NCBI GenBank assembly: GCA_021823605.1
Contig: JAKANV010000001.1
Coordinates: 1 to 24,922 of the forward strand
Reading direction: 5' to 3'
DNA length: 24,922 bases
DNA from: a bacterium
GTDB taxonomy: Bacteria; Patescibacteriota; CPR2; UBA1875; JAJYID01
Shown here: positions 1 to 24,922 of the stretch, piece after piece
Position numbering within the stretch: position 1 is the first letter of the stretch
Layout of the letters: the number at the start of each line of letters is the position of its first letter
Made by a program: the position numbers and the translations under genes
The notes under the pieces: model-generated
The model's input: only the letters and a program-made list of their open reading frames with translations
Told to the model about the DNA's origin: nothing
Database searches by the model: none

Positions 1-478
1 GATATAAAATCTTAATTTTCTCAGTGCTTGAAAAATCAAACTCAGTGCCTCTTAATCCGTCAGTAACCGGTATTTTCTTATCACGTACCAGAGCCAAAAA
101 TTCCTTGTATTCCGGAGACGTGTGTACAGCTTTCGTCATTACAACCCTCCCGACTTCATACCTCTTTAGAACATAAATCAACCCGGCTAAATGATCGGCA
201 TGGGGATGAGACAAGAAAATTATATCGATTTTGCGCTTGTAAAACGGCATATTCTTACCCAAACCTTCAAGAACGGCTTTATCGGGGCCACCGTCTATAA
301 GAGCATTTTTCCCGTCAGAAAACTCAACGTAAGTGCCATCGCCCTGACCAACATTAAGAAAGACAACTTTTAACTTTTTATCAGAGGTGGCGAAAACCGA
401 TGACCAAATACCAACAGAAGCAACCAAAAGAACTATTAAGGCAATCGGCGAAAATATTTTTCTTACTTTATTTTCCAA
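1..478 (-). CDS. ComEC/Rec2-family metallo-beta-lactamase-fold (nuclease) protein with its own N-terminal TM anchor; runs off the window edge (3'-partial)
   Basis: Not in the ORF track; hand-translated from TTG at 478 (in-frame TGA at 484-482; AGGAG 11 nt upstream): MENKVRKIFSPIALIVLLVASVGIWSSVFATSDKKLKVVFLNVGQGDGTYVEFSDGKNALIDGGPDKAVLEGLGKNMPFYKRKIDIIFLSHPHADHLAG... It shows the ComEC-MBL motifs LNVGQGD, LIDGG and HxHxDH, and overlaps the comEC stop by 11 nt. Confidence 0.9.
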   Translation of the reverse strand, partial: MENKVRKIFSPIALIVLLVASVGIWSSVFATSDKKLKVVFLNVGQGDGTYVEFSDGKNALIDGGPDKAVLEGLGKNMPFYKRKIDIIFLSHPHADHLAGLIYVLKRYEVGRVVMTKAVHTSPEYKEFLALVRDKKIPVTDGLRGTEFDFSSTEKIKILY

Positions 479-1913
479 AGATCAGACTTCTCCTTCTGAC
501 AGCTTTATATATAAACAATGCTTCCAAAACTGTGACGTAATAGATGGCCAGATTCAGCGGGGAGAAGTTTAAACCCTCCAAAGAAGCAAATGGTAGGGAG
601 GCCGAAAAATGTATTAAGTATATTATCGCTCTTAGAGAGAAAAGAACCGTCCACGAAATCACATATCCAAAACCCGTCCAAATCATGCCTAAAAAGGCGC
701 TTACAAATCCTATCAGCATCACAAATGGAATAAATGGCAAAACAATAAGGTTTATGAGAAGCGAAATGACAGAAAAGTTCCCAAAATAATAGAGAATTAC
801 CGGATAAGCCATGATTTGCGCGCCAAGACTCATTGCCAGTAGCTCTTTTACCGACTCATTTTTGAAAGGCAAAACCTGTTTTATCACCGGAGCAAGATAA
901 ATAATGCCGATAAAAGCCGCGAAAGAGAGCTGGAAGCCAAGATCAAATCGCAAAATAAATGGATTCGCAGCAATCATTACTGCCGCTGCCAATATGATAG
1001 CCATGCTGGCAGATGATTGCCGACCAATGCGGTATGCCAGAAGCATCATTGCTCCCATGAGACCGGCTCGAACAGCAGAGCTTTGAGAGCCCGTCATTAC
1101 CACAAACCCAGCAATGGCAGTAAGCGGCATGAAGAAACTCATCTTGGCTGATTTCTTAGAAAAGACCAGTCTCAAAGCCTCAATAATTACGGTGATATTA
1201 AATCCTGATAGTGCTATCAAGTGGGTAGTACCTGTTTTCTGTAAATCTTCCATCAGCCAGTCCGGGAGGTTTCTTTTGATTCCCAGAAGCAGTCCCGCCA
1301 AAAAAGAAGCCTCCGGTTCGGGGAAAATAGAGTTAATAGTTTCCTCGAAACGATTTCTTACAGAATAAAGCAAGTTTTTAGCCTTCATACTAAGGCTCAT
1401 GTTCTTTATAACGCTGGCTTTTTCAACTTTCGGAAAAACCATTTGGGCCGATATGCCCTTCGCAAGCAGAGGATTCTTTAACTCATCAGTTTCGGACACA
1501 ACCACCTTCCCCTCGCTTGTTATATAGTCTCCATATTTTATCCCAGAAAATGGCCTCAAAATGAGGAGAATTTTGGCTTTTTTTGCCTGGTCGTAAAGCA
1601 CAACTTTTGTCGCCTTTTTGGTATCCTCCGGCGGTTCAACTACCTGACCTGTTATTTTTAAATTGTTATCTTTAGGATACAGGATGTTCTGCAAACTCAA
1701 ACTATACTGCTGATATCGCAAAACTCCGAGGAAAAAAAATCCAATCGCAATCATGGAAATCCAAAGCCACTTTTGAGGGATTACGGACAAGCTAATGACA
1801 AAAAATATAGCAAAAAGTGCAAGGATAGCAGCACTTGAAAGACTAAAATAAGGCGCAAAAAATACTCCTGCGACAAAAGATAGGAGGATAACCCCGGCAA
1901 AGACTGCTTTCAT
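468..1913 (-). CDS. comEC: ComEC/Rec2 competence membrane channel (DUF4131/OB-like + Competence domain, no MBL domain)
   Basis: Multi-TM protein with GLLLG, HLIALSGFN, SAVRAGLM and FDLGFQLSFAA motifs. Start placed at ATG 1913 because of the promoter geometry; the ORF track uses TTG 1940. Confidence 0.93.
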   Translation of the reverse strand: MKAVFAGVILLSFVAGVFFAPYFSLSSAAILALFAIFFVISLSVIPQKWLWISMIAIGFFFLGVLRYQQYSLSLQNILYPKDNNLKITGQVVEPPEDTKKATKVVLYDQAKKAKILLILRPFSGIKYGDYITSEGKVVVSETDELKNPLLAKGISAQMVFPKVEKASVIKNMSLSMKAKNLLYSVRNRFEETINSIFPEPEASFLAGLLLGIKRNLPDWLMEDLQKTGTTHLIALSGFNITVIIEALRLVFSKKSAKMSFFMPLTAIAGFVVMTGSQSSAVRAGLMGAMMLLAYRIGRQSSASMAIILAAAVMIAANPFILRFDLGFQLSFAAFIGIIYLAPVIKQVLPFKNESVKELLAMSLGAQIMAYPVILYYFGNFSVISLLINLIVLPFIPFVMLIGFVSAFLGMIWTGFGYVISWTVLFSLRAIIYLIHFSASLPFASLEGLNFSPLNLAIYYVTVLEALFIYKAVRRRSLIFGK

Positions 1914-1919
1914 AGAAAG

Positions 1920-1948
1920 ATTATGGTGGAATAAGTTCAAATGTTCAA
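1920..1948 (-). promoter_or_regulatory. sigma70-type promoter for comEC, probably leaderless
   Basis: TTGAAC (1948-1943), 17-nt spacer, CATAAT (1925-1920), 6 nt, ATG 1913; no SD. Confidence 0.6.
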
Positions 1949-1958
1949 GTAGACTTAC

Positions 1959-1987: not shown

Positions 1988-1993
1988 ATAGTT

Positions 1994-2938: not shown

Positions 2939-4551
2939 GGTTTTATCCAAGTATTAGCGCCCGTATCTCCTCTATAAGTCCCGACCGTGCCAGTATCCAT
3001 GACTCTTAAATAGTCGTTACGAGTAAAACAACATATACCACTGGCCCAATAGTAGCCAGCAGGGGTATAGAGCACCAGGTTTGCATCAGTCTGCATAACA
3101 GCAAATCCAGCGGTACCACTCGGAGAAGCTGGAGAAGACCAAAGTGGAGTTGTATTACCAATCCGATAAAGCTCTAGTTTGCCATCGGCTTGATATATCA
3201 ATTTATACTGTCCGTTTTCTGAAATTCGATAATTACCAGCATAAAGGACCTCTCCACTATACATGGTGTTAGAGACAAAGCTTGCATTTACTGTCTTGTC
3301 GGCATTCATTATTACACTGCAAGCTCCTGTGCCTGTACAGTCACCTGTCCAACCGTCAAAACCATAGCCTGCTGGTTTAGTATAAGTAATTGTAACGCTA
3401 GTCCCTTCGTCATACTTTCCGGTGCTAGATGCAGGTGATGCTGTGACTGTACAAGTAGGACAACCTGACTTGTTAATATTGAGTGTATATTGCGGTAGCT
3501 CTGTGGCAGCATCTGCTTTAATATACAAATTTTTTAAATATATGCTGCTTCCAGTATTTGTTTGGACTACAAACTTACTAGAATCGTTAGCTGGATCAGG
3601 CCCTGAGCCTATACTTGAACTCAAGGTAGTCGGACCAACTGTGGTTGGAAGGAATAAAGCGCGAGGAACTATATCAGGGTTATAAGACGCAGTTTGAATG
3701 TCGAGACAATCATCATTAGCATCTGTTACCTTCAAACTAAATGTTGAGTTTGTACTTTCCTTACGATAAGTTATTACAAATTTGATAGCCGAATTATTCC
3801 TCAAATCAATGGTCACTAATGTACCCGCCGTGTTAAGAGTTCCACTAGAGGCTGCCGTTGCTCTATTTAGATATATCTTTCCCTGGTATATATCTAATGA
3901 AACACCCGTTTGAGATCCTTGATTAGTAGGATCAACAAAGCCCAAATGGTAATGCTTTACGGACGTCGGATCAATACCACTTATATCACCACTGAAGATA
4001 ATATATTTAGCAGTGGCAGAGATTGAGATACTCGGGGGATCGGGAGATGTTGTTAAATCTATCTCATTATTCGTAATAGTAGTTGCACTATTATATAGAT
4101 TGGTCCATTTTGATACATAACCATCATCGCTTACCCCACCATCTATTTTCCTTCTGATGTTACCGACCTTGCCTTCACTGTAATAACAATATTGCCAGTC
4201 AACACAAGTTCTGGCCGGTGATACTGAGCTATCATACGGGCTACCAGAACCTCCGACCTGGAAGTCATACGTAACATTCGCCAGCTCCTGGTCACTTGAG
4301 ACTGCCACCTTCTGGCCGGTCTTTGTAACCGCTTGCCCGGGATTTGCCGAGGCATAGTTTCTCGCTCTCTCCTCACCAGACTCAGCCGCCATATAGGCTT
4401 CAACGGAACTATCAAGTTGTCGCGTCTGTTTAATTTCAGAAATTAGAATAGTGGTAACTGTACCAATAACTAGAAAAAACAAAGTTATATACAAAGTACT
4501 CCACAGAAGCACCGTACCGCTTTCATTCTTTAAGTATTTGTACATTTTCAT
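2935..4551 (-). CDS. PilX-like minor pilin / pilus tip adhesin with C-terminal InlB B-repeat-like domain and bulb-type (B-type) lectin domain
   Basis: ESG|TVLLW prepilin site lacking Glu5, TM helix and PilX-type 'AYMAAESG'. aa ~355-425 read YTLNINKSG...GYGFDGWTGDCTGTGACSVIMNADKTVNASF. The C-terminus contains QTDANLVLY, matching QxDxNxVxY. ATGA overlap with the upstream pilW-like gene. Confidence 0.82.
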   Translation of the reverse strand: MKMYKYLKNESGTVLLWSTLYITLFFLVIGTVTTILISEIKQTRQLDSSVEAYMAAESGEERARNYASANPGQAVTKTGQKVAVSSDQELANVTYDFQVGGSGSPYDSSVSPARTCVDWQYCYYSEGKVGNIRRKIDGGVSDDGYVSKWTNLYNSATTITNNEIDLTTSPDPPSISISATAKYIIFSGDISGIDPTSVKHYHLGFVDPTNQGSQTGVSLDIYQGKIYLNRATAASSGTLNTAGTLVTIDLRNNSAIKFVITYRKESTNSTFSLKVTDANDDCLDIQTASYNPDIVPRALFLPTTVGPTTLSSSIGSGPDPANDSSKFVVQTNTGSSIYLKNLYIKADAATELPQYTLNINKSGCPTCTVTASPASSTGKYDEGTSVTITYTKPAGYGFDGWTGDCTGTGACSVIMNADKTVNASFVSNTMYSGEVLYAGNYRISENGQYKLIYQADGKLELYRIGNTTPLWSSPASPSGTAGFAVMQTDANLVLYTPAGYYWASGICCFTRNDYLRVMDTGTVGTYRGDTGANTWIKP

Positions 4552-5918
4552 AATTGGTTCCCCATGGTCAAATAACCATTCATTATTATACTCTCTCCGT
4601 ATAATGGGTTCGTCGGATTAGCTATCCCTGACTTAGCAATCTCAAGTGTATACTCAAGTGTCTTTGGATATGTAGAGGTATTGTTTGTAATTTTAAAATT
4701 CCTGATAGATACTCCACTTGTTGTCAGGAGAGGAAGCTTTGCAAGATCGGTCGATGAGGATGCTGGCGAAGATATTGTCACTGTGGGTGCCGAGGTGTAG
4801 CCAGAACCTGCATTTGTAACATTAATCCCAATAATTGTGCCAAGACCATCCGTTGATATAGTTGCTGTTGCTGTAGCACCAATCCCCCCACCTCCGGATA
4901 TCGTAACCGTGGGTGCCGAGGTGTAGCCAGAACCTGCATTTGTAACATTAATGCTGTTAAGTGTATACGACATGCTGGCAGTACCTGAAAAACTTGTACA
5001 ACCACCACCCGATAAAGAGACGGTCGGTCTAGAAGTATAACCAGAACCTCCACTTGTCATAGTAACCCCAGCTACACCATTCGTAATAGCTATCGTTGCT
5101 GCTGCATTCATTGTCGCTCCTCCTCCTGTGAATGTAACTGTAGGGTTAGATGTATAGCCAGAACCTTCATTGGATATATTCGTATTATTCACCTGTCCAC
5201 CTAAAATATCGACAAACCCACTCATACCCGTTCCACCACCACCAGAAAAAGTCATCGTTGGTGGTAATGTATAACCAGAACCTCGCGTTGAATAATTGAT
5301 GTTACCAAATCTTCCTGTTATTGAGGCAAAACCTGACGCACCAGTTCCTCCACCTCCTGAAAAAACGATTCCAGGATTAGATGTACAACCCCTACCTGGA
5401 TTACCAATAGTGACACCTGTTACTGAACCCGAAATACCCGCAGTTGCCGTCGCTTGTGTATTCCCAAATGTAGCTGGGGTCTGTCCTAATCCAAGGTATC
5501 GAGTAGCACCAACTCCAGTACTAGTTTGCGAACAAAAGAAAATAAGTTTGTCAGTTGAATCTTTCATTTTTAATGTTACATAATCCTTAAAAACTATTCT
5601 TTTCAAGCTACCATCACCATTATTCACTGTATCATAGTTACCACTCGTATAGTCGGTATCACTGCATATACCATTATTACCTGTATCTCTTATATCTACC
5701 ACCTCAGCTTCTCTTGCTTGCCTAGCAAAAATCTCTGACACTGTTCTAGACTCCTCCTGAAGGTTGGCCACCATTGTATAGTCCGTTTGCAGCTTATTTA
5801 AGACCAAAAAGAATCCTACGGTTATGGTCATAATGGTAGCAAAAAGACCCATCCCGATAATCAACTCGACGATAGTCGTACCATTTTTCTTGTTAAGATA
5901 TATGAAATATTTTTTCAT
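4548..5918 (-). CDS. PilW-like minor pilin with an inserted array of six Gly/Ser/Thr-rich repeats
   Basis: KNG|TTIVELIIG prepilin motif with Glu5 and TM helix; third position in the fimU-pilV-pilW-pilX order; ATGA overlaps at both ends. Confidence 0.82.
   Translation of the reverse strand: MKKYFIYLNKKNGTTIVELIIGMGLFATIMTITVGFFLVLNKLQTDYTMVANLQEESRTVSEIFARQAREAEVVDIRDTGNNGICSDTDYTSGNYDTVNNGDGSLKRIVFKDYVTLKMKDSTDKLIFFCSQTSTGVGATRYLGLGQTPATFGNTQATATAGISGSVTGVTIGNPGRGCTSNPGIVFSGGGGTGASGFASITGRFGNINYSTRGSGYTLPPTMTFSGGGGTGMSGFVDILGGQVNNTNISNEGSGYTSNPTVTFTGGGATMNAAATIAITNGVAGVTMTSGGSGYTSRPTVSLSGGGCTSFSGTASMSYTLNSINVTNAGSGYTSAPTVTISGGGGIGATATATISTDGLGTIIGINVTNAGSGYTSAPTVTISSPASSSTDLAKLPLLTTSGVSIRNFKITNNTSTYPKTLEYTLEIAKSGIANPTNPLYGESIIMNGYLTMGNQL
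4765..5457 (-). repeat. Six degenerate ~38-42 aa coding repeats, consensus I-x-V-T-N-x-G-S-G-Y-T-S-x-P-T-V-T-x-S-G-G-G
   Basis: Units: NPGRGCTSNPGIVFSGGGG, TRGSGYTLPPTMTFSGGGG, NEGSGYTSNPTVTFTGGG, SGGSGYTSRPTVSLSGGG, NAGSGYTSAPTVTISGGGG, NAGSGYTSAPTVTISSP. The last two share an exact 44-bp repeat (4783-4826 = 4909-4952). Confidence 0.92.
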
Positions 5919-6511
5919 TCAGGTGTTTCCTTTGATATTATACCTGCAGTTGATAATTTTTTCGAAGATCCATCTTGACTCGTCCAAGTTACCTCAACCC
6001 TCACATAGTAGTATTTATCTCTACAGTCGTAGTCAGCCGCTGTGTTACAGTTGCCATCATTTTGAAAACCTGAAGCAATGCTGCTAAAAGCACCTGTACT
6101 AAAGCCATCACTACCCATGTCGTAAGCATAAATATTTCTTTCAAAACCATTAAACCCGTCTATCTGATTTGGCACCTTGCTTCCGTTGTCAGCAAACTCT
6201 CTGATAGACTCATCCGTAGTTGCATCTGTATCACTTTTAATAACAAACCGGTTGCTGCCCGCATCAATAAATGTTTTAATGTTGCTGAAACTACACCCGA
6301 TATCTCTCTGGTGTTTAGCCATCTCTATACCTTCCTGAGTAAGTGAATTTGCTTTCGTATAATCTTGTGCATCAAAGAGCAATTTTTTTGAAATAACCAC
6401 TAGGTTCATCATAGCGGTCAAAGCAATGCTGATAAGCATTAGAGAGACAACAACCTCCAGGAGGATTTGTCCTTTACTACTTTTTAAAATTCTGCTTTTT
6501 ATTAAATTCAT
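5915..6511 (-). CDS. PilV-like minor pilin
   Basis: SKG|QILLEVVVSL prepilin motif, TM helix, C-terminal 'YYVRVEVTW' strand typical of PilV/GspI-like pilins; position in the minor pilin operon. Confidence 0.8.
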   Translation of the reverse strand: MNLIKSRILKSSKGQILLEVVVSLMLISIALTAMMNLVVISKKLLFDAQDYTKANSLTQEGIEMAKHQRDIGCSFSNIKTFIDAGSNRFVIKSDTDATTDESIREFADNGSKVPNQIDGFNGFERNIYAYDMGSDGFSTGAFSSIASGFQNDGNCNTAADYDCRDKYYYVRVEVTWTSQDGSSKKLSTAGIISKETPE

Positions 6512-6526
6512 AATCTTTAAGCCCGA

Positions 6527-7297
6527 TTATTTTAATTCTACTCCACCTTCCTCACTAATGAAAACTGAACGAACCAAACCCTGGCCTCCGCTTATACTTG
6601 TGTTTGAATCAAAATTTATTTCTAGAGAGTTAGGGTAATATTTGGGTGAGCTCTTCGGAACATACTCTTGAGTTTTCGGGGTCTTCTCCCATTCCGGCGT
6701 TCCACCCGTAAATTTAGATAAAAAAGCAGATTCATCTGCTGAGGGTGACGTCTTACTACCAAACATACAATAGCTATAAAACTTTCCATAGGGACTGGTA
6801 TAAATTAAATATAAATAACCCAACGCATCACTATTAGCACCCCTACAATAGCCGGTAATTTTAGTCCCAAGGTCGTTTGTAAGTGTATATTTACCTTCTA
6901 TCTGTATATCTTGTGCATAATTTAAAGATTCTGATAAATCTAATGTTTTAACTGTTCCCTCAGTCAAAACACCACTAACTTCACAATATGGGATAATACT
7001 GATGGGGTTGCGTGATACCACATTATTAGTACCATCACCAGTTTGAATCCTTATGACTTTGAGTTTGATTGGTTTACCATCACAAGCGCCACTAGATTCA
7101 GTTTTCGTAGATAACGTATCAGTGAATCCTTCTCTAATAGTCGTTTGCAGCCTGTTTGCCACATAACCCATATAGGTGCTTTTCCTGCTTATATAATAAC
7201 TGCTTATACTAAGAGTCATAATAACAGCCATAACAGCCATAACAACTATGAGCTCTGTTAACGTATACCCTCTTTTGTTTTTTAAAAGCTTAAACAT
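6527..7297 (-). CDS. FimU/FimT-like minor pilin (prepilin-type N-terminal cleavage/methylation protein)
   Basis: KRG|YTLTELIVVMAVMAVI motif; first gene of the minor pilin run after pilD. ATG 7297 preferred over TTG 7306. Confidence 0.8.
   Translation of the reverse strand: MFKLLKNKRGYTLTELIVVMAVMAVIMTLSISSYYISRKSTYMGYVANRLQTTIREGFTDTLSTKTESSGACDGKPIKLKVIRIQTGDGTNNVVSRNPISIIPYCEVSGVLTEGTVKTLDLSESLNYAQDIQIEGKYTLTNDLGTKITGYCRGANSDALGYLYLIYTSPYGKFYSYCMFGSKTSPSADESAFLSKFTGGTPEWEKTPKTQEYVPKSSPKYYPNSLEINFDSNTSISGGQGLVRSVFISEEGGVELK
7221..7244. repeat. In-frame 9-bp tandem repeat (ATAACAGCC x2.7) in the pilin TM helix
   Basis: 7221-7229, 7230-7238, partial 7239-7244; encodes VMAVMAV on the minus strand. 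Confidence 0.6.
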
Positions 7298-7342
7298 GGC
7301 GTTCAAATTAGTCCAAATAAATAGGAATTTTATGAAATTAAT

Positions 7343-8146
7343 CTATAAGAAAAGTTTAACATAAAAACTTACCAAATGCTCTCCCAAAAAAAGACCGACA
7401 AATGTACCAATGACTAAGAAGGGGCCAAAGGGTATTTTCGAGCCCAGCTTCTTCTTTCCGGAAATGAGCGTAAAGACTCCGACGAGCGCCCCCAAGAAAA
7501 ATGCAGCATAAAGAGCAACCAAAGTACCCTGCCAGCCTAAAATTAATCCCATCAGCGCTACTAGTTTGATGTCTCCGCCCCCCATCCACTTTCCGTTTGA
7601 TATGGTAGCGAGTGTGAAGAAAAATCCTCCGGCAAGCAAGCCAGATAAAAGATGGTCAATTAAGTAGCTAATATTTCCAGTAAGAACAACATTTGTTAAA
7701 ACGTAAATCAAAGCCACGGCTAGCGCAGTGTAAATAATCTCGTCCGGGATAATCCGATGTTTTAAATCGTAAACAAAAATAGCAATCAAAGATGAAATAA
7801 AAAACAGCCAAAAAACAATATTGATAAAGTTCAAAGCTGTAAAACGACCAAATTGAAGAAAAAAATAACCAGTTGCTGCAAAGATTAATCCGGTTGATAA
7901 CTCAACTAAAGGATATTGGATAGAAATTTCCTTCTTACAGCTCCGGCACTTGCCCCGTAATATTAGCCACGAAATAACGGGAATATTATCAGACCACTTA
8001 ATCTTTTCCTCACAATGCGGACAAAAAGACCGTCCATTCAAACTTTTTCTTTTCTTGGCTTCTAGCCGATAGATAAGGACATTCAAGAAGCTGCCGATAC
8101 ATAGACCGACAAGAAATAAGAAAAACAAAATCAGATAAAAAGACAT
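7343..8146 (-). CDS. pilD: Prepilin peptidase / N-methyltransferase (A24)
   Basis: GSFLNV, two CxxC motifs (CPHC, CRSC), catalytic Asp motifs VYDLKH and MGGGDIKL, and IPFGPFL. ATG 8146 preferred over TTG 8164. Confidence 0.96.
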   Translation of the reverse strand: MSFYLILFFLFLVGLCIGSFLNVLIYRLEAKKRKSLNGRSFCPHCEEKIKWSDNIPVISWLILRGKCRSCKKEISIQYPLVELSTGLIFAATGYFFLQFGRFTALNFINIVFWLFFISSLIAIFVYDLKHRIIPDEIIYTALAVALIYVLTNVVLTGNISYLIDHLLSGLLAGGFFFTLATISNGKWMGGGDIKLVALMGLILGWQGTLVALYAAFFLGALVGVFTLISGKKKLGSKIPFGPFLVIGTFVGLFLGEHLVSFYVKLFL

Positions 8147-8152
8147 AAGAAT

Positions 8153-8158
8153 ATTATA
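8153..8158 (-). promoter_or_regulatory. -10 box for pilD, probably leaderless
   Basis: Perfect TATAAT (8158-8153), 6 nt, ATG 8146; no SD; no clear -35. Confidence 0.55.
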
Positions 8159-8162
8159 CACC

Positions 8163-8182
8163 AAAAAAAACTCCTTTCGGAG
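8163..8182 (-). terminator. Intrinsic terminator after the LamG pilin pair
   Basis: Minus strand CTCC-GAAA-GGAG followed by T8. A second imperfect hairpin lies at 8195-8221. Confidence 0.65.
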
Positions 8183-12442: not shown

Positions 12443-12465
12443 GCACCGACAAATCATAATATTTT

Positions 12466-12474
12466 TGGTATAAT
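12466..12474 (+). promoter_or_regulatory. Extended -10 promoter for the sugar transferase operon
   Basis: TG-G-TATAAT at 12466-12474; GAGG SD 7 nt before ATG 12505. Confidence 0.5.
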
Positions 12475-12504
12475 GTTTAGTACTGTTTATGATGAGGATT
12501 TTAT

Positions 12505-13857: not shown

Positions 13858-13858
13858 C

Positions 13859-16811: not shown

Positions 16812-17904
16812 GATAACAAAACTATATTCTCCCTGGATAGGCGGCGTGGAAAAGGTTGTCCAGGATATTGCTGAGGGGATAAACGGCAAAAACGGCCTGA
16901 AGATTGAGGTTTTATGCTGCCAGCCGAAAGGCAGAGGCGAATCTAAGAAGATAAATGGGGTAACAATCCATAAATCTTCAAGCTTGGGCATCGTAAAAAG
17001 CATGCCTGTTTCTTTTTCTTTCTTTACTCAGTTTAAAAAACTTACCAAGGGCTTTGACACGCTCGCTATTCATCAACCATTCCCTTTGGCCGATCTTGCA
17101 GTATTCATTTTCAGGCCAAAAAAGAAGATAATCGTCCATTATCACTTTGACGTGTACAAACAAAAAATTTTGGGGCCCTTTCTTAAACCCTTCGCACTAT
17201 ATACGCTCAAAAAGGCGCAAAATATTATAGTATCCAACCCAAATGTAATCAAAAACTCACCTTATTTGAAGAAATTTAAGGGTAAATGCGTTATCATCCC
17301 CTTCGGTGTAGATGCTAAGAATATTCAGTCATCGACCGATGAGAAAAAAGTATCTGAACTAAAAAAACAATATGGTAATTTCGTCCTTTTCGTTGGTCGT
17401 CTCAGTTATTACAAAGGCATTCAATATTTAATTGAGGCAATGAAAGACATTTCAGCGAATCTCCTGATTGTCGGCTTGGGGCAAGAAGAGAAAAGCTTAA
17501 AGACACTCACTCAAGAGCTTGGGATTGGGAAAAGAGTCTTTTTCTTGGATAAACAGTCAAATGAAGACTTAGGTAACTACTACAAAGCCGCTTCAGCCTT
17601 CGCCCTACCGTCAATATACAAAAGCGAGGCATTTGGCATCGTTTTAATAGAATCGATGGCCTGTGGGACACCCCTGGTGACGACAGAGATAGGTACGGGG
17701 ACCAGTTGGGTAAACAAAGATGGTACAACCGGTTTTGTAGTCCCTCCAAAGGATTCTCTCGCTCTTTCTCAAGCTTTAAAAAAAATATTAGAAAATGATA
17801 ACTTAAGAAAAGATTTCTCTGAAAATTGTCTAAAAATGACGGCTTCAGTCTTCACAATTTCAAAGTTCAAGAAAGAGATTGTCGGCGCTTATACTCAAGA
17901 CTAA
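16798..17904 (+). CDS. GT4 glycosyltransferase (WfcD-like subgroup)
   Basis: YSPWIGGVEKVV, FVGRLSYYKG and LPSIYKSEAFGIVLIESMACGTP. ATG 16798 has GAGGAG 7 nt upstream; the ORF track uses TTG 16783. Confidence 0.9.
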   Translation: MKILEITKLYSPWIGGVEKVVQDIAEGINGKNGLKIEVLCCQPKGRGESKKINGVTIHKSSSLGIVKSMPVSFSFFTQFKKLTKGFDTLAIHQPFPLADLAVFIFRPKKKIIVHYHFDVYKQKILGPFLKPFALYTLKKAQNIIVSNPNVIKNSPYLKKFKGKCVIIPFGVDAKNIQSSTDEKKVSELKKQYGNFVLFVGRLSYYKGIQYLIEAMKDISANLLIVGLGQEEKSLKTLTQELGIGKRVFFLDKQSNEDLGNYYKAASAFALPSIYKSEAFGIVLIESMACGTPLVTTEIGTGTSWVNKDGTTGFVVPPKDSLALSQALKKILENDNLRKDFSENCLKMTASVFTISKFKKEIVGAYTQD

Positions 17905-18003: not shown

Positions 18004-18384
18004 TTAAGGACCTGAAATAGTTCCTATGCTACCACTACAGTTGCTATCAAATATAGTGAGAGTATAACCAGTCGTTGAAGAGTTAACGCTACCACCACCA
18101 TTAGCACAGTCAGCTGCACCAGTGTTTATACTAACTCCGGTCACTGTTCCTGTTGCAGCAGTAAATGCAGTTCCAGATGTTATAGAAGGATAGTTTCTGT
18201 TTCTGGAATAGTAAGCTTCCATCCCAGCCTGCATTGCCTTTGCGTTGGTTCTGTTTGATGTCTCCTTAGCAGTGTTTCTTGCTACCAAGATGGCACCGAT
18301 GATAAGAGCTGCAAGTACGGCAATGATTGCCATAACAACAACTACTTCGATAAGTGTAAAACCTTGTCTATTTAACTTTTTCAT
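18004..18384 (-). CDS. pilA: Probable major type IVa pilin
   Basis: MKKLNRQG|FTLIEVVVVMAIIAVL motif; 118-aa mature protein; 'EAYY...YP' motif; one Cys pair; strong SD AAGGAGGTG before ATG 18384; directly follows pilC. Assignment as the major pilin is inferred from size and expression signals. Confidence 0.85.
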   Translation of the reverse strand: MKKLNRQGFTLIEVVVVMAIIAVLAALIIGAILVARNTAKETSNRTNAKAMQAGMEAYYSRNRNYPSITSGTAFTAATGTVTGVSINTGAADCANGGGSVNSSTTGYTLTIFDSNCSGSIGTISGP

Positions 18385-18433
18385 TTTCACCTCCTTCCCC
18401 CCTTTTACAGGGTTTTTCTTTTGTTATGTTAAT

Positions 18434-18471: not shown

Positions 18472-19695
18472 TTACTTTTTCGGCGTGAAGTTTTGGAAGT
18501 TCTGAATACTGTAAACCGGTAATAAAATACAGATTATTATCGTACCGACGATACCGCCCATTATCACAATCATTATCGGCTCCAGGAGCGACTGCAAACT
18601 CTTCGTCATATTATCAAGCTCATCATCATAGTAATCCGCCATATTTTGTAGCATCGTATCCAACTCACCGGTACTTTCACCGACTGCTATCATTTGTGAG
18701 ACCATTATCGGGAAAAGCTCCTCTTCTTTCAGGGAAGCCGAGAGTGCTTTACCCTGTTTTACCTTATCTTTTACTCTCGTAATTGAATCCGAATATATTA
18801 CATTCGGCATGGCTTCTGAAACTATTTGTAACGCGTCAAGAATAGGAACACCCGACGCGATTAAGCTGGCAAGAGTACGAGTAAAGATAGATAAATATGA
18901 AAGAGCTACAAATTTACCAACCAACGGAACGTTTATCTTTATCCTATGCCAGATGTATTTTCCCGTCTCATTTGTCCTTGTATATATTCTCGCGCTTATA
19001 AATGCTGCTACCGCTACTAACAAAACCAGCAAGAAATATCTAGCTAGAAAATGGCTTGTTGCAATCAAAAATCTCGTAGGCAGCGGGAGGGTGGAGTTAA
19101 AACTTTTATACAAACTTTCCATTTGCGGCAGAATGAAAATTATAAGACCAGCAACGACACCTATAACAACTACTGATAGAAAGGCAGGATAAATAAAAAC
19201 AGTTTTTATCTTCTTTAGGGTTTTATACGTTTTTTCTGTTTGATCTGCCATATGAACCAAAACTTCATCAATCTTACCACTGGCCTCACCGGCAGCAATA
19301 ATGCTAATGTCGGTTTTGTTAAAAGTATCGGGAAAAGCACCAAAAGCAGAAGACATGCTTCCGCCTGCTTCTATGTCACGAGTCATCTGCTCTATCATCT
19401 TTTTTACATTTTTCCGGGAAGTCTGTTCAAGAAGTGTAGATAGAGCTTGAGATATCGGCAATCCAGCATGTGTCATAGTCGCAAGTTGCCTAATAAAGAA
19501 CACTTTATCCTTTCTTGAAACTTTATTGCCGAATGAAATGCCACCCAAAGAGCTCTTTGAAGCTTCCTTAATATCAATAGGAACGATGCCTTTTGAAATC
19601 AAAAGTGTAGATGCAGCCTGTTCACTCTCCGCTTCTATTATGCCCTGTGCTGCCGCACCATCTTTACCTCTTGCTTTGTAGCTAAACTCTCTCAT
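18472..19695 (-). CDS. pilC: Type IV pilus inner-membrane platform protein (GspF/PilC family)
   Basis: FSYKARGKDG, FIRQLATMTHAGLPI, AGEASGKIDEVL, YPAF, VGESTGELD and LLEPIMI motifs. Confidence 0.95.
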   Translation of the reverse strand: MREFSYKARGKDGAAAQGIIEAESEQAASTLLISKGIVPIDIKEASKSSLGGISFGNKVSRKDKVFFIRQLATMTHAGLPISQALSTLLEQTSRKNVKKMIEQMTRDIEAGGSMSSAFGAFPDTFNKTDISIIAAGEASGKIDEVLVHMADQTEKTYKTLKKIKTVFIYPAFLSVVVIGVVAGLIIFILPQMESLYKSFNSTLPLPTRFLIATSHFLARYFLLVLLVAVAAFISARIYTRTNETGKYIWHRIKINVPLVGKFVALSYLSIFTRTLASLIASGVPILDALQIVSEAMPNVIYSDSITRVKDKVKQGKALSASLKEEELFPIMVSQMIAVGESTGELDTMLQNMADYYDDELDNMTKSLQSLLEPIMIVIMGGIVGTIIICILLPVYSIQNFQNFTPKK

Positions 19696-19698: not shown

Positions 19699-20772
19699 TT
19701 ATCCGTGAAGAAGCCTTTCAAGCTCTTTTATATCAATTGCATAACCTTTAGCCTCATCGAGCGTGATTCTGCCGGTTTTAATAAGACTTGCGAGCGTTCT
19801 ATCCATTGCCTGCATTCCTTCTGAAGCGCCGGTCTGAATAACTGCCTCAAGCTGGTGAGTTTTCTGCTCACGAATGATATTTCTGACGGCCGGAGTAACA
19901 ACTAGAATCTCAGCCGCCGCAATACGTCCTCCGCCAATTGACGGGATAAGACGCTGAGAGACTATACCCTGTAAAATATTTGAAAGCTGAACTCTTATCT
20001 GTTGCTGCTGATGCGGCGGAAATACGTCTATCATTCTGTCTACTGACTGAGCAGCATTGTTTGTATGTAAAGTAGCGAAAACCAGATGCCCAGTTTCAGC
20101 AATGGTAATAGCCGCTGCGATAGTTTCAAGGTCACGCATTTCACCGATTAAAACTACGTCAGGATCTTCACGGAGAACACTCCTTAAAGCAGCCGCGAAA
20201 GAACGTGTATCATAGTGCACCTCACGTTGCTCAACAATAGATTTTTTATGAGAGTGGGTATACTCAATCGGATCCTCTACTGTAATAATATGGCACGCGC
20301 GTTCGCTATTTATCTTATCCACCATAGCTGCCAAAGTCGTAGATTTACCTGAACCGGTAGGACCCGTCACAAGCACTAAACCTCTCGGATATTCGGTAAA
20401 CTTATCCACTATCTTTGGCATTCCAAGCTGAGTTAGATTTCTAATGGCAACCGGTATCAAACGAAGTGCAAGCCCAACATTACCCTTTTGATGATATGCA
20501 TTTGCCCTAAATCTAGCCAAATCACCATAAGTAAAGGAGAAGTCCACTTCTTTATCGCGTTCTAATATATCTTTTTGTACATCATCAAGAATAGAAAGAG
20601 TCAAATCGTGTACATCTTTATCAGTTAAAGCCCTGGCACCTTCTACTGGGACAAGAGCACCGTCAACCCTAAGCATCGGCGGCACACCAACTGTTAGATG
20701 AAGGTCACTTGCGTCTTTCTTTATAACTTCCTCTAGGAAGTTTTCAATTTTTAGTTTTGCTGTTTCTGCCAT
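19699..20772 (-). CDS. pilT: Type IV pilus retraction ATPase
   Basis: ASDLHL, Walker A GPTGSGKSTT, EDPIE, Walker B LREDPDVVLIGEMRD, HLVFATLHT, and AVRNIIRE (AIRNLIRE motif). Confidence 0.97.
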   Translation of the reverse strand: MAETAKLKIENFLEEVIKKDASDLHLTVGVPPMLRVDGALVPVEGARALTDKDVHDLTLSILDDVQKDILERDKEVDFSFTYGDLARFRANAYHQKGNVGLALRLIPVAIRNLTQLGMPKIVDKFTEYPRGLVLVTGPTGSGKSTTLAAMVDKINSERACHIITVEDPIEYTHSHKKSIVEQREVHYDTRSFAAALRSVLREDPDVVLIGEMRDLETIAAAITIAETGHLVFATLHTNNAAQSVDRMIDVFPPHQQQQIRVQLSNILQGIVSQRLIPSIGGGRIAAAEILVVTPAVRNIIREQKTHQLEAVIQTGASEGMQAMDRTLASLIKTGRITLDEAKGYAIDIKELERLLHG

Positions 20773-20825: not shown

Positions 20826-20838
20826 TGCTTTTGCTCTA

Positions 20839-22608
20839 TTACTCTGTTGTTGTTCTTACTACTTCCTCAAGTGTGGTAATACCTGCAAGAGCCTTCAAGA
20901 AGCCATCTTGGCGCATTGTCACCATACCTTGCTTAACTGCTGCCTCTTGAATATCGCTGGAGGAAGCATGCCCGACAATGAGATCTTCAATCTTTTCAGT
21001 TACACTAAATATCTCATAAACACCGGTTCTGCCCCAGTAACCCGTATTCTTACAATAGTCACAGCCTTTTCCTTTATATAACTTAAATTTTTCATCTTCC
21101 ATAAAAGGCAGGCTGTCGAATCCCAACTCTTGTGTTTTTTCTTTCGGGTCACTCTTTGAAGGCAAAATACCTTTTAAAGATAATTTAATAGCTTTAACAA
21201 GGCTCGGACTGGCCTCATATTCTTCCTTACAATGATCGCATATCTGCCTTACAAGTCTTTGGGCTATAACAGTATTTACTGTTGAGGCAATAAGAAATGG
21301 CTCAATATCCATTTCGAGAAGTCTTGGCAGTGCTCCGGCAGCAGAATTGGTATGAAGAGTGGAAAGTACAGTATGGCCGGTAAGCGCTGACTGAACTGCT
21401 AACTCAGCGGTTTCTTTATCACGAATTTCTCCGACCATTATCACATCAGGATCCTGACGCAAGATGGAACGTAAACCGGAAGAAAATGTCAAACCTACCG
21501 CATTATTCACTTGTATCTGGTTAATGCCATTAATATTATATTCTACCGGGTCCTCAACCGTGATAATGTTGACGCTTGGTTTATTTATCTTTGATAAAAC
21601 GGCATACAAAGAAGTAGATTTACCCGAACCGGTTGGACCTGTCGCCAAGATCATGCCATGAGGTTTCTTCGTGCCTTCCTCAATGATTCTAAAAGCTCTT
21701 CCTTTTATGCCAAGATTTTCAAGTGTAATGATGCCGCTTGTCTTGTCCAAAAGCCTGATAACAACTTTTTCGCCGTAAACAATTGGGGTTATAGAAATAC
21801 GAAGGTCAATTTCCCGGTCTTCAAGATTTAACTGAAAACGACCGTCTTGCGGAACACGATGCTCGTCTATTTTCAGGTTCGAAAGTATTTTGATACGTGA
21901 AACAAGTGCGGGATGGATGTGCTTGGGCAACGTCATTGTATTATACAAAATACCATCAATTCGATATCTGACCTTAATCTCTTTTTCCCTCGGTTCAATA
22001 TGGATGTCTGATGCCCTAGACTTAGCCGCATATTCTAATATCGTATTTAAAGCTCTGGTAATCGGTGCGTCTTGGGTAATAACAGCGGCATCACCCTCTT
22101 TACCCTCGTCTTCCTTTAAGTTTATCTCAGGAGGCTTCTCCATATTGCCAATAACATTTTGAACCTCAACCGAGTAATCGTCATATTGATTTAGGGCCTT
22201 CCTCATACCTTCTTCAGAAGCAAAGTAAGGCTTCAGTTTCAACCCGGTCTTTTTCTCAACATACTCGATGGCCATAATATCGTTGGGGTCAGTCATGGCT
22301 ACATTCAGGAAATCACCGACTTTGCCGAAAGATACCAGCTTGTATTTCTCAGCTATATCTTTACTGACAATATTTAGAATCGCCTTATCAATTTTTTTCT
22401 GGGATAAATCGACATAAGGCAAGCCCATGGTTACCGCCATAGCCTTTGTCAGGCCTTCTTTTGGTATCTCTGGCATATCATTTAATATCTTTTGTATTGG
22501 TTTGCCAGTTTCAGCGCTCTCAACCTTAATAAGGTCAAGCTGCTTTTGTGTCAGTAGACCTAGCTTGACCAGAAAATCTTCAAGTTTTTTTTCGTTTCTA
22601 ACAGCCAT
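20839..22608 (-). CDS. pilB: Type IV pilus assembly ATPase (GspE/PilB family)
   Basis: N-terminal GSPII_N/MshEN-like region, ASDIHIEP, RVPQDGR, Walker A GPTGSGKST, LRQDPDVIMVGEIRD, and tetracysteine Zn site (CDHC...CDYC). Confidence 0.97.
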   Translation of the reverse strand: MAVRNEKKLEDFLVKLGLLTQKQLDLIKVESAETGKPIQKILNDMPEIPKEGLTKAMAVTMGLPYVDLSQKKIDKAILNIVSKDIAEKYKLVSFGKVGDFLNVAMTDPNDIMAIEYVEKKTGLKLKPYFASEEGMRKALNQYDDYSVEVQNVIGNMEKPPEINLKEDEGKEGDAAVITQDAPITRALNTILEYAAKSRASDIHIEPREKEIKVRYRIDGILYNTMTLPKHIHPALVSRIKILSNLKIDEHRVPQDGRFQLNLEDREIDLRISITPIVYGEKVVIRLLDKTSGIITLENLGIKGRAFRIIEEGTKKPHGMILATGPTGSGKSTSLYAVLSKINKPSVNIITVEDPVEYNINGINQIQVNNAVGLTFSSGLRSILRQDPDVIMVGEIRDKETAELAVQSALTGHTVLSTLHTNSAAGALPRLLEMDIEPFLIASTVNTVIAQRLVRQICDHCKEEYEASPSLVKAIKLSLKGILPSKSDPKEKTQELGFDSLPFMEDEKFKLYKGKGCDYCKNTGYWGRTGVYEIFSVTEKIEDLIVGHASSSDIQEAAVKQGMVTMRQDGFLKALAGITTLEEVVRTTTE

Positions 22609-22610
22609 GG

Positions 22611-22850
22611 CTAGAAGTTAGCAAATGGATTATCTCTTCCTATATTATCCATTGGGGGTGAGCCATAATCTTTTCTCTTCTGCAGTTTGTTAATCGTGTC
22701 TGTATCAATCTGACCGGTAAACTCTATGGTTGCTTTATTCTGAGTAGTTGTCGGTTGGGATTTTGGCATTAAGCCTTTTGAAACAAAGTATGCAGCTAGA
22801 ATGATAACCAGCGCACAAATGACTACTACGATGATATCTGTTTTCTTCAT
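22611..22850 (-). CDS. Small single-TM protein in the PilP position, ending in GRDNPF
   Basis: 79 aa from ATG 22850 (GGAGG SD; 1 nt after the pilO stop): basic N-terminus, TM helix without lipobox Cys, low-complexity linker, C-terminal GRDNPFANF. Confidence 0.8.
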   Translation of the reverse strand: MKKTDIIVVVICALVIILAAYFVSKGLMPKSQPTTTQNKATIEFTGQIDTDTINKLQKRKDYGSPPMDNIGRDNPFANF

Positions 22851-22851
22851 T

Positions 22852-23439
22852 TTACTTTGCCTCCTCCGGTTGGCCACTATTCTCGCTTCTATAATAAGCC
22901 GTATAACTTAAGCTCACTGTAAAACTGTTTTGGCTGTTTATTTGGAAACTATTTAAGTGCAAATACCTTAAAGTGTTTTCAGACTCACTAAGAAGTCTTT
23001 TTAGGGTCGCATAGTCAGGAAAAGTAACACTGATATTAGAACCCAGCGTACTGATACCTTCTGTCCCTGCAGCAGCACTAGTACCAGCACCCTCGCTAAC
23101 AGAATTGCCTGTGCCATTGCCTGTGCCGCCTATGCTTGTGGCCAATCCATTTAACTGGATAAATAAATCTCCAACTTCCTTTTTGGTCGGTATTGCTCTA
23201 TACACAACTCGTGACTGTTCGCGAAGTTCATCTTCTTTGACTTTAAACTCTTTGAGTTTTGCCAGTTTTTGTTCGGCTATGCTAAGTTCCTCTTTGTTTT
23301 CTTTAAGATCTTTGTCGACTTTTCCGATGCTCTTAAATGATGGCACGATAATAAAAATCAAGGCCAAAATTACTACCAACGAGGTAACAGCAATTACCCC
23401 TCCAAACCAATAATACTTATCAAGTTTTTTATCTACCAT
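22852..23439 (-). CDS. pilO: Type IV pilus alignment protein PilO
   Basis: TM, coiled coil, 'AIPTKKEVGDLFIQL', ferredoxin-like C-terminus ('LRYLHLNSFQI'); follows pilN. Confidence 0.85.
   Translation of the reverse strand: MVDKKLDKYYWFGGVIAVTSLVVILALIFIIVPSFKSIGKVDKDLKENKEELSIAEQKLAKLKEFKVKEDELREQSRVVYRAIPTKKEVGDLFIQLNGLATSIGGTGNGTGNSVSEGAGTSAAAGTEGISTLGSNISVTFPDYATLKRLLSESENTLRYLHLNSFQINSQNSFTVSLSYTAYYRSENSGQPEEAK
23104..23127. repeat. In-frame 12-bp tandem duplication (ATTGCCTGTGCC x2)
   Basis: 23104-23115 = 23116-23127; encodes GTGN-GTGN in a Gly-rich loop of PilO. Confidence 0.65.
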
Positions 23440-23990
23440 AATATTCCTTGTTCCATCTCAAAACTTATACTAAAATCTATCGCATCTCCACTAGCGCTAT
23501 AGCTGGTTACACTAACATTTTTGAACAAGTTTCTACCGGTTTTTTCATCTTTATAGCTATCTAATGTATTCATCAACCTGGGGATAGAATATAGCTGCCT
23601 ACCCTTTATTTGTGCAGTAAATTTGTTGTCAGTTTGGCTTAAACTCAAAAACTGTACATCGTTTGGGGTGACCTTTTCCAAAACCGGAAAGAATCTCGAC
23701 CATTTTGGTTCGCTCTGCTCAATGTTATTTATCGCCTTTGTGCCCTGCTCAATATTAACAACCATATCTTCAATATCTTTGTATCCTTTCAGCTCATCAT
23801 TGGTACTGGCAATTTTCTTCTTTGTTTGGTCTAGCAGATAAATCTTAGACCATTTATATCCTTGCAGAACAAGTATAAATGCAACCATACCCGCTAAAAT
23901 AATTATAGCTGTAATAGTCACCATGAAGTTTCTTCTCTTTGTTTTTAGCTTATCCAGCCTTACATCTGGTGCAAGATTTATCTTTGTCAT
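23433..23990 (-). CDS. pilN: Type IV pilus alignment protein PilN
   Basis: N-terminal INLAP (INLLP PilM-binding motif), TM, coiled coil, and 'WSRFFPVLEKVTPNDVQF'. Confidence 0.88.
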   Translation of the reverse strand: MTKINLAPDVRLDKLKTKRRNFMVTITAIIILAGMVAFILVLQGYKWSKIYLLDQTKKKIASTNDELKGYKDIEDMVVNIEQGTKAINNIEQSEPKWSRFFPVLEKVTPNDVQFLSLSQTDNKFTAQIKGRQLYSIPRLMNTLDSYKDEKTGRNLFKNVSVTSYSASGDAIDFSISFEMEQGILW

Positions 23991-23991
23991 C

Positions 23992-24922
23992 TTAAAAACC
24001 CCTCATTGCGAGTCCAACAGCCACAGCAAAATCTGTGGCACTGGAGTTTAGTTGATTTGTTATGTCGGGTTTGTGTGCTACCATTCCCCAAGGATTACCA
24101 TAAACAACATTAACACCCAAGCTTTCCGTAAGAAAGCCTTGAATTCCTAAAGTTCTTGATCCCCCGCCTGTAATCTTTATAAGAGGAACATTCTCACCGA
24201 ATTGGTCTGAATAATATTTCATCGATCTGTCAATTTCTTCTTTTAAATTATGCAAAATTGATTTTGACGCCTTATAAAGCTGGCCTTCCATTTTGTCCTG
24301 TTCTATACCAAACTTTATTTTAAACTGCTCTGCCTGTGACTCTTCCATCCCCAGACTTTGTGCTATTGCTCTTGTTATGACCTGCCCACCAACAGGGATA
24401 GACCTTATAAGGGAAGCTATACCGTTTTTTACCACAGTTATCTCGGATAGGTAAGTGCCTATGTCAACTATCATGTACAATGGTTCGCTAGTAGCCAACG
24501 ATCTGGCGGCAGCAATCGCATTAATTTCAACTGCGCTAAGTTCTAAACCAGCTTCTTCACAGATGTCCATCATTTTTTGAGTTTTTGAGATGGGAGCCGC
24601 AATAATCATAACCAAAACCTGATCCTTAGACGGAACTTCTCCAATAATCTGCCAATCAATTTTCACATCAGAAATCTTAAGCGGAATGTTTTGTTCAGCC
24701 TGATAACTTATAGCTTTTTTCAGTTCTGATGCGGGCATTTTGGGAAGAGAAATGACCGTTGTAAAAACGGCGCTACCCGGCAAAGAAACCATAACATTCT
24801 TGGTTACTAAATGCATAGAATGTATAAGCTTTTTTATTTCTTCTGCCAGCTTTTTCTTGTCAATATTACTATCACTTTGTGAAACCCCCTCCGGCACTGG
24901 CGCGCTGCCAAAAGATGATCGG
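23992..24922 (-). CDS. pilM: Type IV pilus assembly protein PilM (actin/FtsA-like); 5'-partial
   Basis: Frame is open to the window edge (...RSSFGSAPVPEG...); QAEQNIP, IDWQ, IVDIGTYLSEI, RSIPVGGQVIT, ITGGGS and AVAVGLAMRG motifs. Confidence 0.95.
   Translation of the reverse strand, partial: RSSFGSAPVPEGVSQSDSNIDKKKLAEEIKKLIHSMHLVTKNVMVSLPGSAVFTTVISLPKMPASELKKAISYQAEQNIPLKISDVKIDWQIIGEVPSKDQVLVMIIAAPISKTQKMMDICEEAGLELSAVEINAIAAARSLATSEPLYMIVDIGTYLSEITVVKNGIASLIRSIPVGGQVITRAIAQSLGMEESQAEQFKIKFGIEQDKMEGQLYKASKSILHNLKEEIDRSMKYYSDQFGENVPLIKITGGGSRTLGIQGFLTESLGVNVVYGNPWGMVAHKPDITNQLNSSATDFAVAVGLAMRGF

Follow-up and report, generated by a model that had tools for sequence, protein, structure and literature searches.

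The 24,922-nucleotide stretch of DNA analysed here (the window) spans all of contig C39 of genome G000, an assembly of 677 kb in 95 contigs (estimated 86% complete, GC 0.406) from a Saccharibacteria-like, uncultured Patescibacterium. It holds a type IV pilus locus, a two-gene ComEC and, set among the pilin genes, a six-gene glycan cassette that includes a Wzy_C ligase with a TPR domain (Wzy_C-TPR). Gene families were assigned by Pfam and NCBIfam profile matches. The 24 open reading frames (ORFs) give a coding fraction of 97.6%, and an earlier note on this DNA was right both about the near absence of intergenic DNA and about the gene inventory (pilMNO(P)BTC, seven prepilin genes, pilD, a split comEC, a Xer recombinase and six glycan genes), every item of which was found in its place. 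The pilus machine, ComEC and the modular pilin heads are a species-level version of an already described system. The cassette, which is accessory, low in GC and self-contained, is the new element of the locus, and the best reading of it is that its glycan is put on the pilins.

The cassette occupies 8 kb (10010-17904, + strand) between pilA and the gene for a 257-aa pilin, and consists of the following genes:

10010-12442, + strand: WaaL/PglL-like ligase with Wzy_C (E 3.8e-18) and TPR domains, 810 aa, a candidate O-oligosaccharyltransferase
12505-13857, + strand: initiating polyprenyl-phosphate hexose-1-phosphate transferase, WbaP/WcaJ type (Bac_transf, E 4.8e-67; TIGR03025, 391.6 bits, over the cut-off)
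13859-15157, + strand: Wzx-type flippase (Polysacc_synt, E 7e-39)
15154-15705, + strand: class I S-adenosylmethionine-dependent methyltransferase, 183 aa (Methyltransf_11/23)
15702-16811, + strand: GT4 glycosyltransferase (Glycos_transf_1, E 6.8e-38)
16783-17904, + strand: GT4 glycosyltransferase (Glycos_transf_1, E 1.3e-46)

The initiating transferase, used as a query, found no other Bac_transf-type match in G000. Its gene contains a perfect in-frame 12-nt tandem repeat of 2.8 copies (12814-12846). Contig C50 carries a second glycan cluster that supplies an initiator (WecA type) and a Wzy_C protein of its own, and the pilus-embedded cassette is therefore an extra pathway. The C50 cluster (C50:5189-16914, L099) looks like a wall-glycopolymer pathway: it encodes a 1193-aa transferase (methyltransferase, GT2 twice and GT4), epimerase and dehydratase enzymes, two GT4 enzymes, a member of the WecG/TagA family and an initiator of WecA/MraY type, along with a Wzy_C protein of 433 aa that has no TPR. 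This cluster is patchy among relatives, its Wzy_C being present in about half of the class and not in two congeners.

Relatives were compared by tblastn, with window proteins as queries against fetched loci, and the cassette was searched for with the Wzy_C-TPR protein and the initiating transferase. The relatives named below are G001 and G002, congeners of G000; G004, G006, G007 and G009, which are other family- or order-level relatives; and L003, a Logan contig whose PilB is 61% identical to that of the window. The cassette was found in three genomes only, G000, G002 and L003, and in each it lies between pilA and the next pilin gene. It is inverted with respect to the pil genes in G000 and G002, and co-oriented with them, directly downstream of pilA, in L003. 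PilB in these cassette-slot genomes is only 61-76% identical to the window PilB, and between L003 and G000 the cassette proteins are 36-50% identical, a divergence similar to that of PilC, PilM and PilD (39-45%). The methyltransferase slot differs in all three, other genes standing there in G002 and a Methyltransf_21 gene in L003. The distance from pilB to comEC is about 10-12 kb in relatives without the cassette, against 18-19 kb in G000. The GC content of the cassette is 0.35-0.39, that of the pil genes 0.36-0.43 (most at least 0.40) and that of the genome 0.41. The cassette borders were searched for the inverted repeats of an invertible segment, and none were found.

The AlphaFold2 (AF2) model of the 810-aa ligase (pLDDT 83.6, pTM 0.82) has WaaL as its best match in the PDB (TMt 0.65), with H377 aligned to the AHN histidine of WaaL structure 7TPG. 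R190, R245, R326 and H377 are invariant in 23 homologues. Hydropathy and the positive-inside rule gave 13 transmembrane (TM) helices, which places the TPR domain on the extracytoplasmic side, with the catalytic loop. Proteins combining Wzy_C and TPR, 630-850 aa long, are widespread in Patescibacteria. In a class sample of 32 species, 12 of the 32 genomes matched the Wzy_C-TPR profile, some only with fragments, and the copy in the pilus locus was confined to G000 and G002. Two distant homologues adjoin Wzm/Wzt ABC-transporter glycan clusters, while others are paired with a Bac_transf initiator or form tandem Wzy_C pairs near large proteins without a Pfam match. A metagenome scan for close relatives returned only homologues of at most 34% identity, none near pilus genes. 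In three Portnoybacteria-type loci (L004, L100 and L101), a tandem of Wzy_C and Wzy_C-TPR genes lies downstream of genes for a 230-aa TPR protein and a protein of about 1200 aa without a Pfam match, with a sigma factor or DUF5667 protein nearby; this arrangement may be another acceptor system. The L100 contig is a mirror image of itself, which may be an assembly artefact.

The proposed acceptors of the glycan are the pilins. Seven prepilins are encoded, six with a canonical leader, G↓(F/Y/Q/T)xxxE, and one, PilX-like, without Glu5:

18004-18390, - strand: PilA major pilin, 128 aa (N_methyl, E 4e-8; leader G↓FTLIE), directly after pilC as in relatives
9113-9886, - strand: LamG-type pilin paralogue, 257 aa, canonical leader, 42% identical to the 272-aa pilin over the full length
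8220-9038, - strand: modular pilin with a LamG/ConA-like jelly roll, 272 aa (N_methyl and Laminin_G_3)
6527-7306, - strand: minor pilin, 259 aa (N_methyl, E 4.3e-7)
5915-6511, - strand: PilV-like minor pilin, 198 aa (N_methyl, E 0.0038), with orthologues in all relatives
4548-5918, - strand: PilW-like minor pilin, 456 aa (leader G↓TTIVE), enlarged by Gly-rich repeats of about 42 aa
2935-4551, - strand: PilX-like tip pilin, 538 aa, with an InlB B-repeat (Flg_new_2, E 4e-10) and a putative C-terminal bulb-type lectin module

PilA is 46% Gly/Ala/Ser/Thr and has a C-terminal disulfide loop. The exposed heads of three other pilins would be lineage-specific grafts, two of them LamG/ConA-like jelly rolls and the third the bulb-type lectin of the PilX-like protein. 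For the 272-aa pilin, the Laminin_G_3 match scores 28.0 bits against a cut-off of 27.6, and the AF2 model (pLDDT 78) has an alpha1 helix running straight into a ConA-like jelly roll, whose fold neighbours in the PDB are the calreticulin lectin domain, neurexin LNS, alginate lyase and the trans-sialidase lectin domain. At the N-terminal helix, the 257- and 272-aa pilins are identical over about 40 aa. Residues 445-519 of the PilX-like protein match the NCBIfam family of putidacin-L1 lectin-like bacteriocins at E 1.8e-8 (34 bits, against a cut-off of 275 bits); Pfam B_lectin has no match on the window protein and matches the G004 orthologue at E 1.4e-6. The earlier note had spoken of lectin-bearing pilins, and the folds are indeed of lectin type, but only two of the heads have a direct domain match, one barely over its cut-off and the other below the curated one, and the third (9113-9886) is assigned through paralogy.

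These heads would most likely bind glycans of the host surface. Weighing against sugar binding, the C-terminal ~100 aa of the PilX-like protein retain one intact QxDxNxVxY motif and two degenerate ones (one site of three intact), and many LamG domains bind proteins, not sugars, the LamG label here being a fold-level assignment. The lectin-like heads are species-specific swaps and are not conserved. No orthologous heads of the LamG pilins were found in the relatives, and the pilin genes beside the cassette are the most variable part of the locus. In PilX, the N-terminal ~140 aa are kept and the C-terminal module is exchanged (orthologues at L086:8397-10421, L087:14542-15996 and L002:3828-5417), the head being a B_lectin domain in G004, a five-repeat FG-GAP propeller in G001, and without an assigned domain in G002, G006, G007 and G009. 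A search for other pilins combining an InlB repeat with a bulb lectin gave matches almost all through the InlB repeat, none with N_methyl.

The PilW-like protein, at 456 aa, compares with 173-216 aa in its orthologues. The extra length is an internal array of ~42-aa repeats of the type GSGYTS-PTVT-SGGGG, for which no family or fold match was found. A tandem repeat finder detected no DNA-level array over the same region, and the neighbours of the protein in an atlas search were generic N_methyl/PilW clusters only, with scores below 0.9.

From its gene content, the cassette is proposed to work as follows. The WbaP-type phosphoglycosyltransferase would start an undecaprenyl-phosphate-linked glycan, the two GT4 enzymes and the methyltransferase would extend and cap it, and Wzx would flip it to the outer face of the membrane. 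The 810-aa ligase, with its external TPR domain, would then transfer the glycan en bloc to a protein acceptor, most likely the pilins. Genome-wide searches of G000, at its completeness of 86%, gave no match for Secretin, LpxC or Omp85, the genes that the earlier note had suggested looking for as pilQ, lpx and bamA. With no lipid A pathway gene found, the classical WaaL acceptor is missing, and lipid A-core cannot be the acceptor of a WaaL-type enzyme in G000. All known pilin O-oligosaccharyltransferases (O-OTases) are Wzy_C proteins with an essential His, usually encoded beside the pilin gene (PMC9829042). The window ligase gene likewise adjoins pilin genes, being divergent from 9113-9886 in G000 and directly downstream of pilA and co-oriented with it in L003. 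Because there is no lipid A acceptor, and because the known pilin-adjacent Wzy_C enzymes are pilin O-OTases, we regard pilin O-glycosylation as the best reading of the cassette and hold it with modest confidence. What the analysis shows directly is the gene content, the synteny, the folds, the topology and the conservation of catalytic residues; the pilin as acceptor, sugar binding by the heads and use of this pilus for DNA uptake are inferred. We put forward only tentatively the further proposal that Wzy_C-TPR represents, in Patescibacteria, a new class of protein O-oligosaccharyltransferase, captured in this small lineage with its entire glycan pathway into the pilus operon to act on pilins, its class features being the WaaL fold, the 13th TM helix and an extracellular TPR domain for acceptor recognition.

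Several observations weigh against pilin O-glycosylation. Pilus genes were found beside none of the other Wzy_C-TPR homologues (0 of 45 contexts), and in five other genomes of the class a full-length member lies on a contig other than that of the main pilB; the family must therefore have non-pilus acceptors elsewhere. The C-terminal Ser/Thr expected of a TfpO/TfpM acceptor was not found, PilA ending in ...TISGP and the flanking pilins in ...KAF or ...KSF, and the ...TISGP ending recurs in G006, which has no cassette. Across the loci compared, neither the PilA C-terminus nor its Gly/Ala/Ser/Thr content correlated with the presence of the cassette (3 loci vs 5). The cassette is also dispensable, since it was not found in the congener G001, in G004, G006, G007 or G009, or in about 20 loci labelled Saccharimonadia. 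Finally, in G000 it lies on the strand opposite to pilA, so that the two are not co-transcribed.

Some of these points would be expected if the cassette made a general surface glycoconjugate, either O-glycans on envelope proteins other than pilins or on S-layer-like proteins, or a glycan linked to lipid or wall, and the pilus were unglycosylated. Its place among the pilin genes would then reflect nothing more than the tolerance of that hypervariable stretch for insertions. We consider this a real but lesser possibility. It accounts for the patchy distribution and the opposite strand, for a GC content below that of the pil genes and the genome, as in an acquired island, and for the variability of the adjoining pilin genes, and it agrees with the surroundings of the Patescibacteria homologues, which adjoin glycan clusters, SecA or ~1200-aa proteins without a Pfam match, and never pili. 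However, it does not readily explain why the same slot is filled in three genomes as diverged in PilB as these, in one of them immediately after pilA and in the same orientation. Also against it, G000 already encodes an envelope-glycan cluster apart from the cassette.

The earlier note had proposed a single surface machine, in which a glycosylated fibre bears candidate sugar-binding heads for host recognition and also takes up DNA through ComEC. On this view, pilus glycan and lectin heads would act as a unit and would have been selected together with ComEC; the tip lectins might, for example, read the organism's own methyl-capped glycan or tell self from host. All the parts are indeed adjacent within 25 kb of almost entirely coding DNA, and a mannose-type lectin motif and GT4 transferases share the locus. 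The comparison of heads and cassette, which covers 8 loci (3 with the cassette and 5 without), nevertheless does not support the proposal, which we now consider very improbable. G004 has a PilX with a B-lectin and no cassette, G001 has a propeller head and no cassette, and the two other genomes with the cassette, G002 and L003, show no detectable lectin domain. The trend across the 8 loci is one of no association between lectin-type heads and the cassette, and the linkage to ComEC and Xer is present with or without either module. Heads and cassette thus assort independently, and because they do, the locus is not one co-evolved design.

About as improbable is a reading of Wzy_C-TPR as a polymerase of O-units, with a polymeric, capsule-like polysaccharide as the product of the cassette by the Wzx/Wzy route: Pfam Wzy_C does cover some Wzy polymerases, and the locus encodes a Wzx flippase along with an initiator of WbaP type, but the cassette has no gene for a chain-length regulator or wall ligase, the catalytic His typical of WaaL/PglL is invariant, the extracytoplasmic TPR domain suggests a protein partner, and the homologues beside Wzm/Wzt clusters favour a ligase, as ABC-transporter glycan pathways need no polymerase.

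The rest of the window consists of the pilus machine and the conserved scaffold around it:

23992-24897, - strand: PilM, actin-like (Pfam PilM_2, E 1.7e-39)
23433-23990, - strand: PilN-like, without a Pfam match, called by position and conservation in relatives
22852-23439, - strand: PilO-like (weak Pfam PilO match, E 5.9e-4, under the gathering score), position and sequence kept in relatives
22611-22877, - strand: 88-aa single-TM protein in the PilP position, without a Pfam match, 40-62% identical and in the same place in relatives
20839-22608, - strand: PilB extension ATPase (T2SSE, E 3.7e-134, and MshEN)
19699-20772, - strand: PilT retraction ATPase (T2SSE), 357 aa without the N-terminal domain, 90-96% identical within the family
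18472-19695, - strand: PilC platform protein (T2SSF twice, E 5.9e-65)
7343-8164, - strand: PilD prepilin peptidase (A24_N_bact, E 2e-33, and Peptidase_A24, E 1e-17)
1976-2938, + strand: Xer-type (XerC/D) tyrosine recombinase (Phage_integrase and SAM-like N domain), on the strand opposite to the pil genes
468-1940, - strand: ComEC channel, 490 aa (DUF4131, and Competence, E 1.7e-49), pilus-linked, with orthologues 60-73% identical in the family
2-478, - strand: metallo-beta-lactamase (MBL) ORF, a separate C-terminal part of ComEC (Lactamase_B, E 7.9e-10), truncated by the contig end

This gene set is that of a secretin-less type IVa pilus, with PilB, PilC, PilM/N/O, PilD and major and minor class III pilins all present. 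PilM/N/O with the 88-aa protein, PilC, PilB and PilT would assemble and retract the fibre in an envelope without an outer membrane and without a secretin. The body of the fibre would be the 128-aa major pilin, PilD would process the seven prepilins, and the set of PilV-, PilW- and PilX-type minor pilins would probably prime and tip the fibre. The presence of PilT suggests that the pilus is retractile. As the earlier note had stated, there is no secretin ORF between the 88-aa gene and pilB, and Secretin was found in none of the 41 genomes searched (G000 included; 30 of high quality). Further PilB- or PilT-type ATPase genes lie elsewhere in G000 (C7:1-1314, C14:7046-8110 and C83:1807-2235), which makes it probable that the organism assembles at least two type IV filaments, in line with what has been reported for TM7x. 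Scans for promoters and terminators gave counts not above those of shuffled sequence and were uninformative.

The order pilM-N-O-88aa-B-T-C-A-(pilins)-pilD-four minor pilins-Xer (opposite strand)-ComEC-MBL is kept in G001, G002, G004, G006 and G007, the G001 contig beginning inside pilB; in G009 it holds up to Xer, where the contig ends. The arrangement pilM...pilB-T-C...pilD...Xer recurs at equal spacing in about 20 Saccharimonadia-labelled loci, and the position and orientation of Xer are kept both there and in the family members, at 50-89% identity. As the main locus for type IV pili, and a conserved one, the window is equivalent to 'T4P locus one' of cultured strains. In eleven of the Saccharimonadia-labelled loci (L009, L010, L012, L015-L018, L024-L026 and L032) the PilB match extends over about 2.6 kb, against 1.77 kb for the same 589 query residues in the window; this suggests an insertion of about 290 aa in pilB of those loci, possibly an intein, which is not present in the window.

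The domain set of ComEC is complete, comprising DUF4131 (OB fold), the Competence membrane domain and the metallo-beta-lactamase, the last as a separate ORF. In the window, the two ORFs overlap by 11 nt, and the MBL ORF shows a GGAG-like motif and a separate TTG start. The same two-ORF layout, with a channel of about 490 aa and an MBL protein of about 290 aa in the +1 frame, was found in all six family genomes (G000, G001, G002, G004, G006 and G007), with overlaps of 8-14 nt and an ATG or TTG start and a purine-rich Shine-Dalgarno-like motif belonging to the MBL ORF. An assembly error or pseudogene is ruled out as the cause of the split by this identical overlapping layout, with its own start, in six genomes. 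At phylum level, too, the open frame of ComEC is only about 500 aa long in most relatives.

DprA and a ComEA-like HHH_3 gene are encoded elsewhere in the G000 genome, and experiments on a cultured Saccharibacterium have demonstrated natural transformation that depends on ComEC (PMC10633639). Together with DprA and ComEA, the two-gene ComEC would give DNA uptake, in which the window pilus may be used. Pilus and ComEC genes are linked in all five family members that have both on one contig (5/5), which bears out the earlier note on a secretin-less retractile pilus linked to ComEC; outside the family, the main pilB and comEC are usually far apart or on separate contigs. That note held that its design would be refuted if the gene blocks were unlinked in relatives, and synteny gave a divided answer: the scaffold of pilus, pilD, minor pilins, Xer and ComEC is conserved in the family, but the glycan block is confined to G000, G002 and L003 and missing from most relatives.

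The earlier note's placement of the organism in the Patescibacteria is well supported by the small genome, the labels of its relatives and the finding of no marker genes for lipopolysaccharide (LPS) or an outer membrane. Genome sizes of all 40 relatives are 0.5-1.2 Mb. In the public record, one relative from the same family (PilB 85% identical) and one from the same order (69%) carry the label uncultured Candidatus Saccharibacteria bacterium, and the next tier of PilB matches (51-55%) is labelled Candidatus Saccharimonadia. TGA was correctly called a stop: it terminates 6 of the 23 complete window genes and 119 of 568 long ORFs genome-wide, and recoding of TGA (code 25) is thereby ruled out.

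Type IV pili are essential to the epibiotic life of Saccharibacteria, and whether and how their pilins are glycosylated is a point that the field itself has named as open (PMC11623550). The locus offers a compact six-gene candidate pathway with a recognisable catalytic histidine, which, if the tentative proposal of a new transferase class is true, would be the first defined protein-glycosylation system of bacteria of the candidate phyla radiation (CPR). The comparison also shows a mode of locus evolution in which a fixed machine and ComEC scaffold carries swappable adhesin heads and an optional glycan island, and such modularity bears on host range and on phage and immune evasion in CPR bacteria.

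Among known systems, the closest is T4P-1 of Nanosynbacter lyticus TM7x and Southlakia epibionticum. 'T4P locus one' of TM7x comprises PilC1, PilB1, PilT, PilM1/N1/O1, PilD and five pilins, and encodes an essential pilus (PMC11623550). The window locus resembles it in being secretin-less and in occurring in organisms with ComEC competence (PMC11623550, PMC10633639). It differs in having the 8-kb cassette after pilA and two extra LamG-type pilins, in its repeat-expanded PilW-like protein, and in its PilX, which carries an InlB repeat and a putative bulb lectin, whereas PilX of T4P-1 has an L-type-lectin-like jelly roll; its PilB is about 51-55% identical to those of Saccharimonadia-labelled loci. 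Lectin-like minor pilins (PilX in TM7x), predicted pilin glycosylation and ComEC competence have all been published for Saccharibacteria (PMC11623550, PMC10633639), in agreement with the earlier note's remark that the parts are individually known.

The LamG pilins resemble Streptococcus sanguinis PilC, with its ConA-like lectin module, in fusing a class III signal peptide and alpha1 to a ConA-like/LamG domain, and pilins with PF13385 (LamG) are among the commonest modular pilin architectures, CPR included (PMC8179133, PMC9934059). Unlike S. sanguinis PilC, the window has two tandem paralogues, with putative glycan binding, in which the jelly roll is modelled as following alpha1 directly, with no separate pilin beta-sheet module. 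The PilX-like head shares one intact QxDxNxVxY motif with bulb-type (GNA/MMBL) lectins and a partial putidacin L1 match with the LlpA/putidacin bacteriocins, but is a single, partly degenerate domain at a pilin tip, well short of the putidacin cut-off.

With WaaL of Cupriavidus metallidurans (PDB 7TPG), its best structural match, the window ligase shares the aligned Arg/Arg/His residues; it differs from this enzyme in its added TPR domain and in the lack of a lipid A-core acceptor. With the pilin O-OTases TfpO/PilO, TfpM, PglL and PglS, it shares Wzy_C with the essential His, a pilin-adjacent gene and a predicted undecaprenyl-PP-oligosaccharide substrate (PMC9829042). TfpO and TfpM act on a C-terminal Ser/Thr of the pilin, which the cognate pilin of the window does not have, and the PglL/PglS type modifies internal Ser/Thr residues, in pilins and in other proteins, with a glycan taken from a lipid carrier. 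Unlike these families, which are 420-620 aa long (420-470 for the TfpO/TfpM type), the window candidate has 810 aa, with a 13th TM helix and an extracytoplasmic TPR region of about 270 aa, and its host is of CPR type. Moreover, its full glycan pathway is encoded beside it, whereas the known enzymes borrow theirs from O-antigen or capsule loci.

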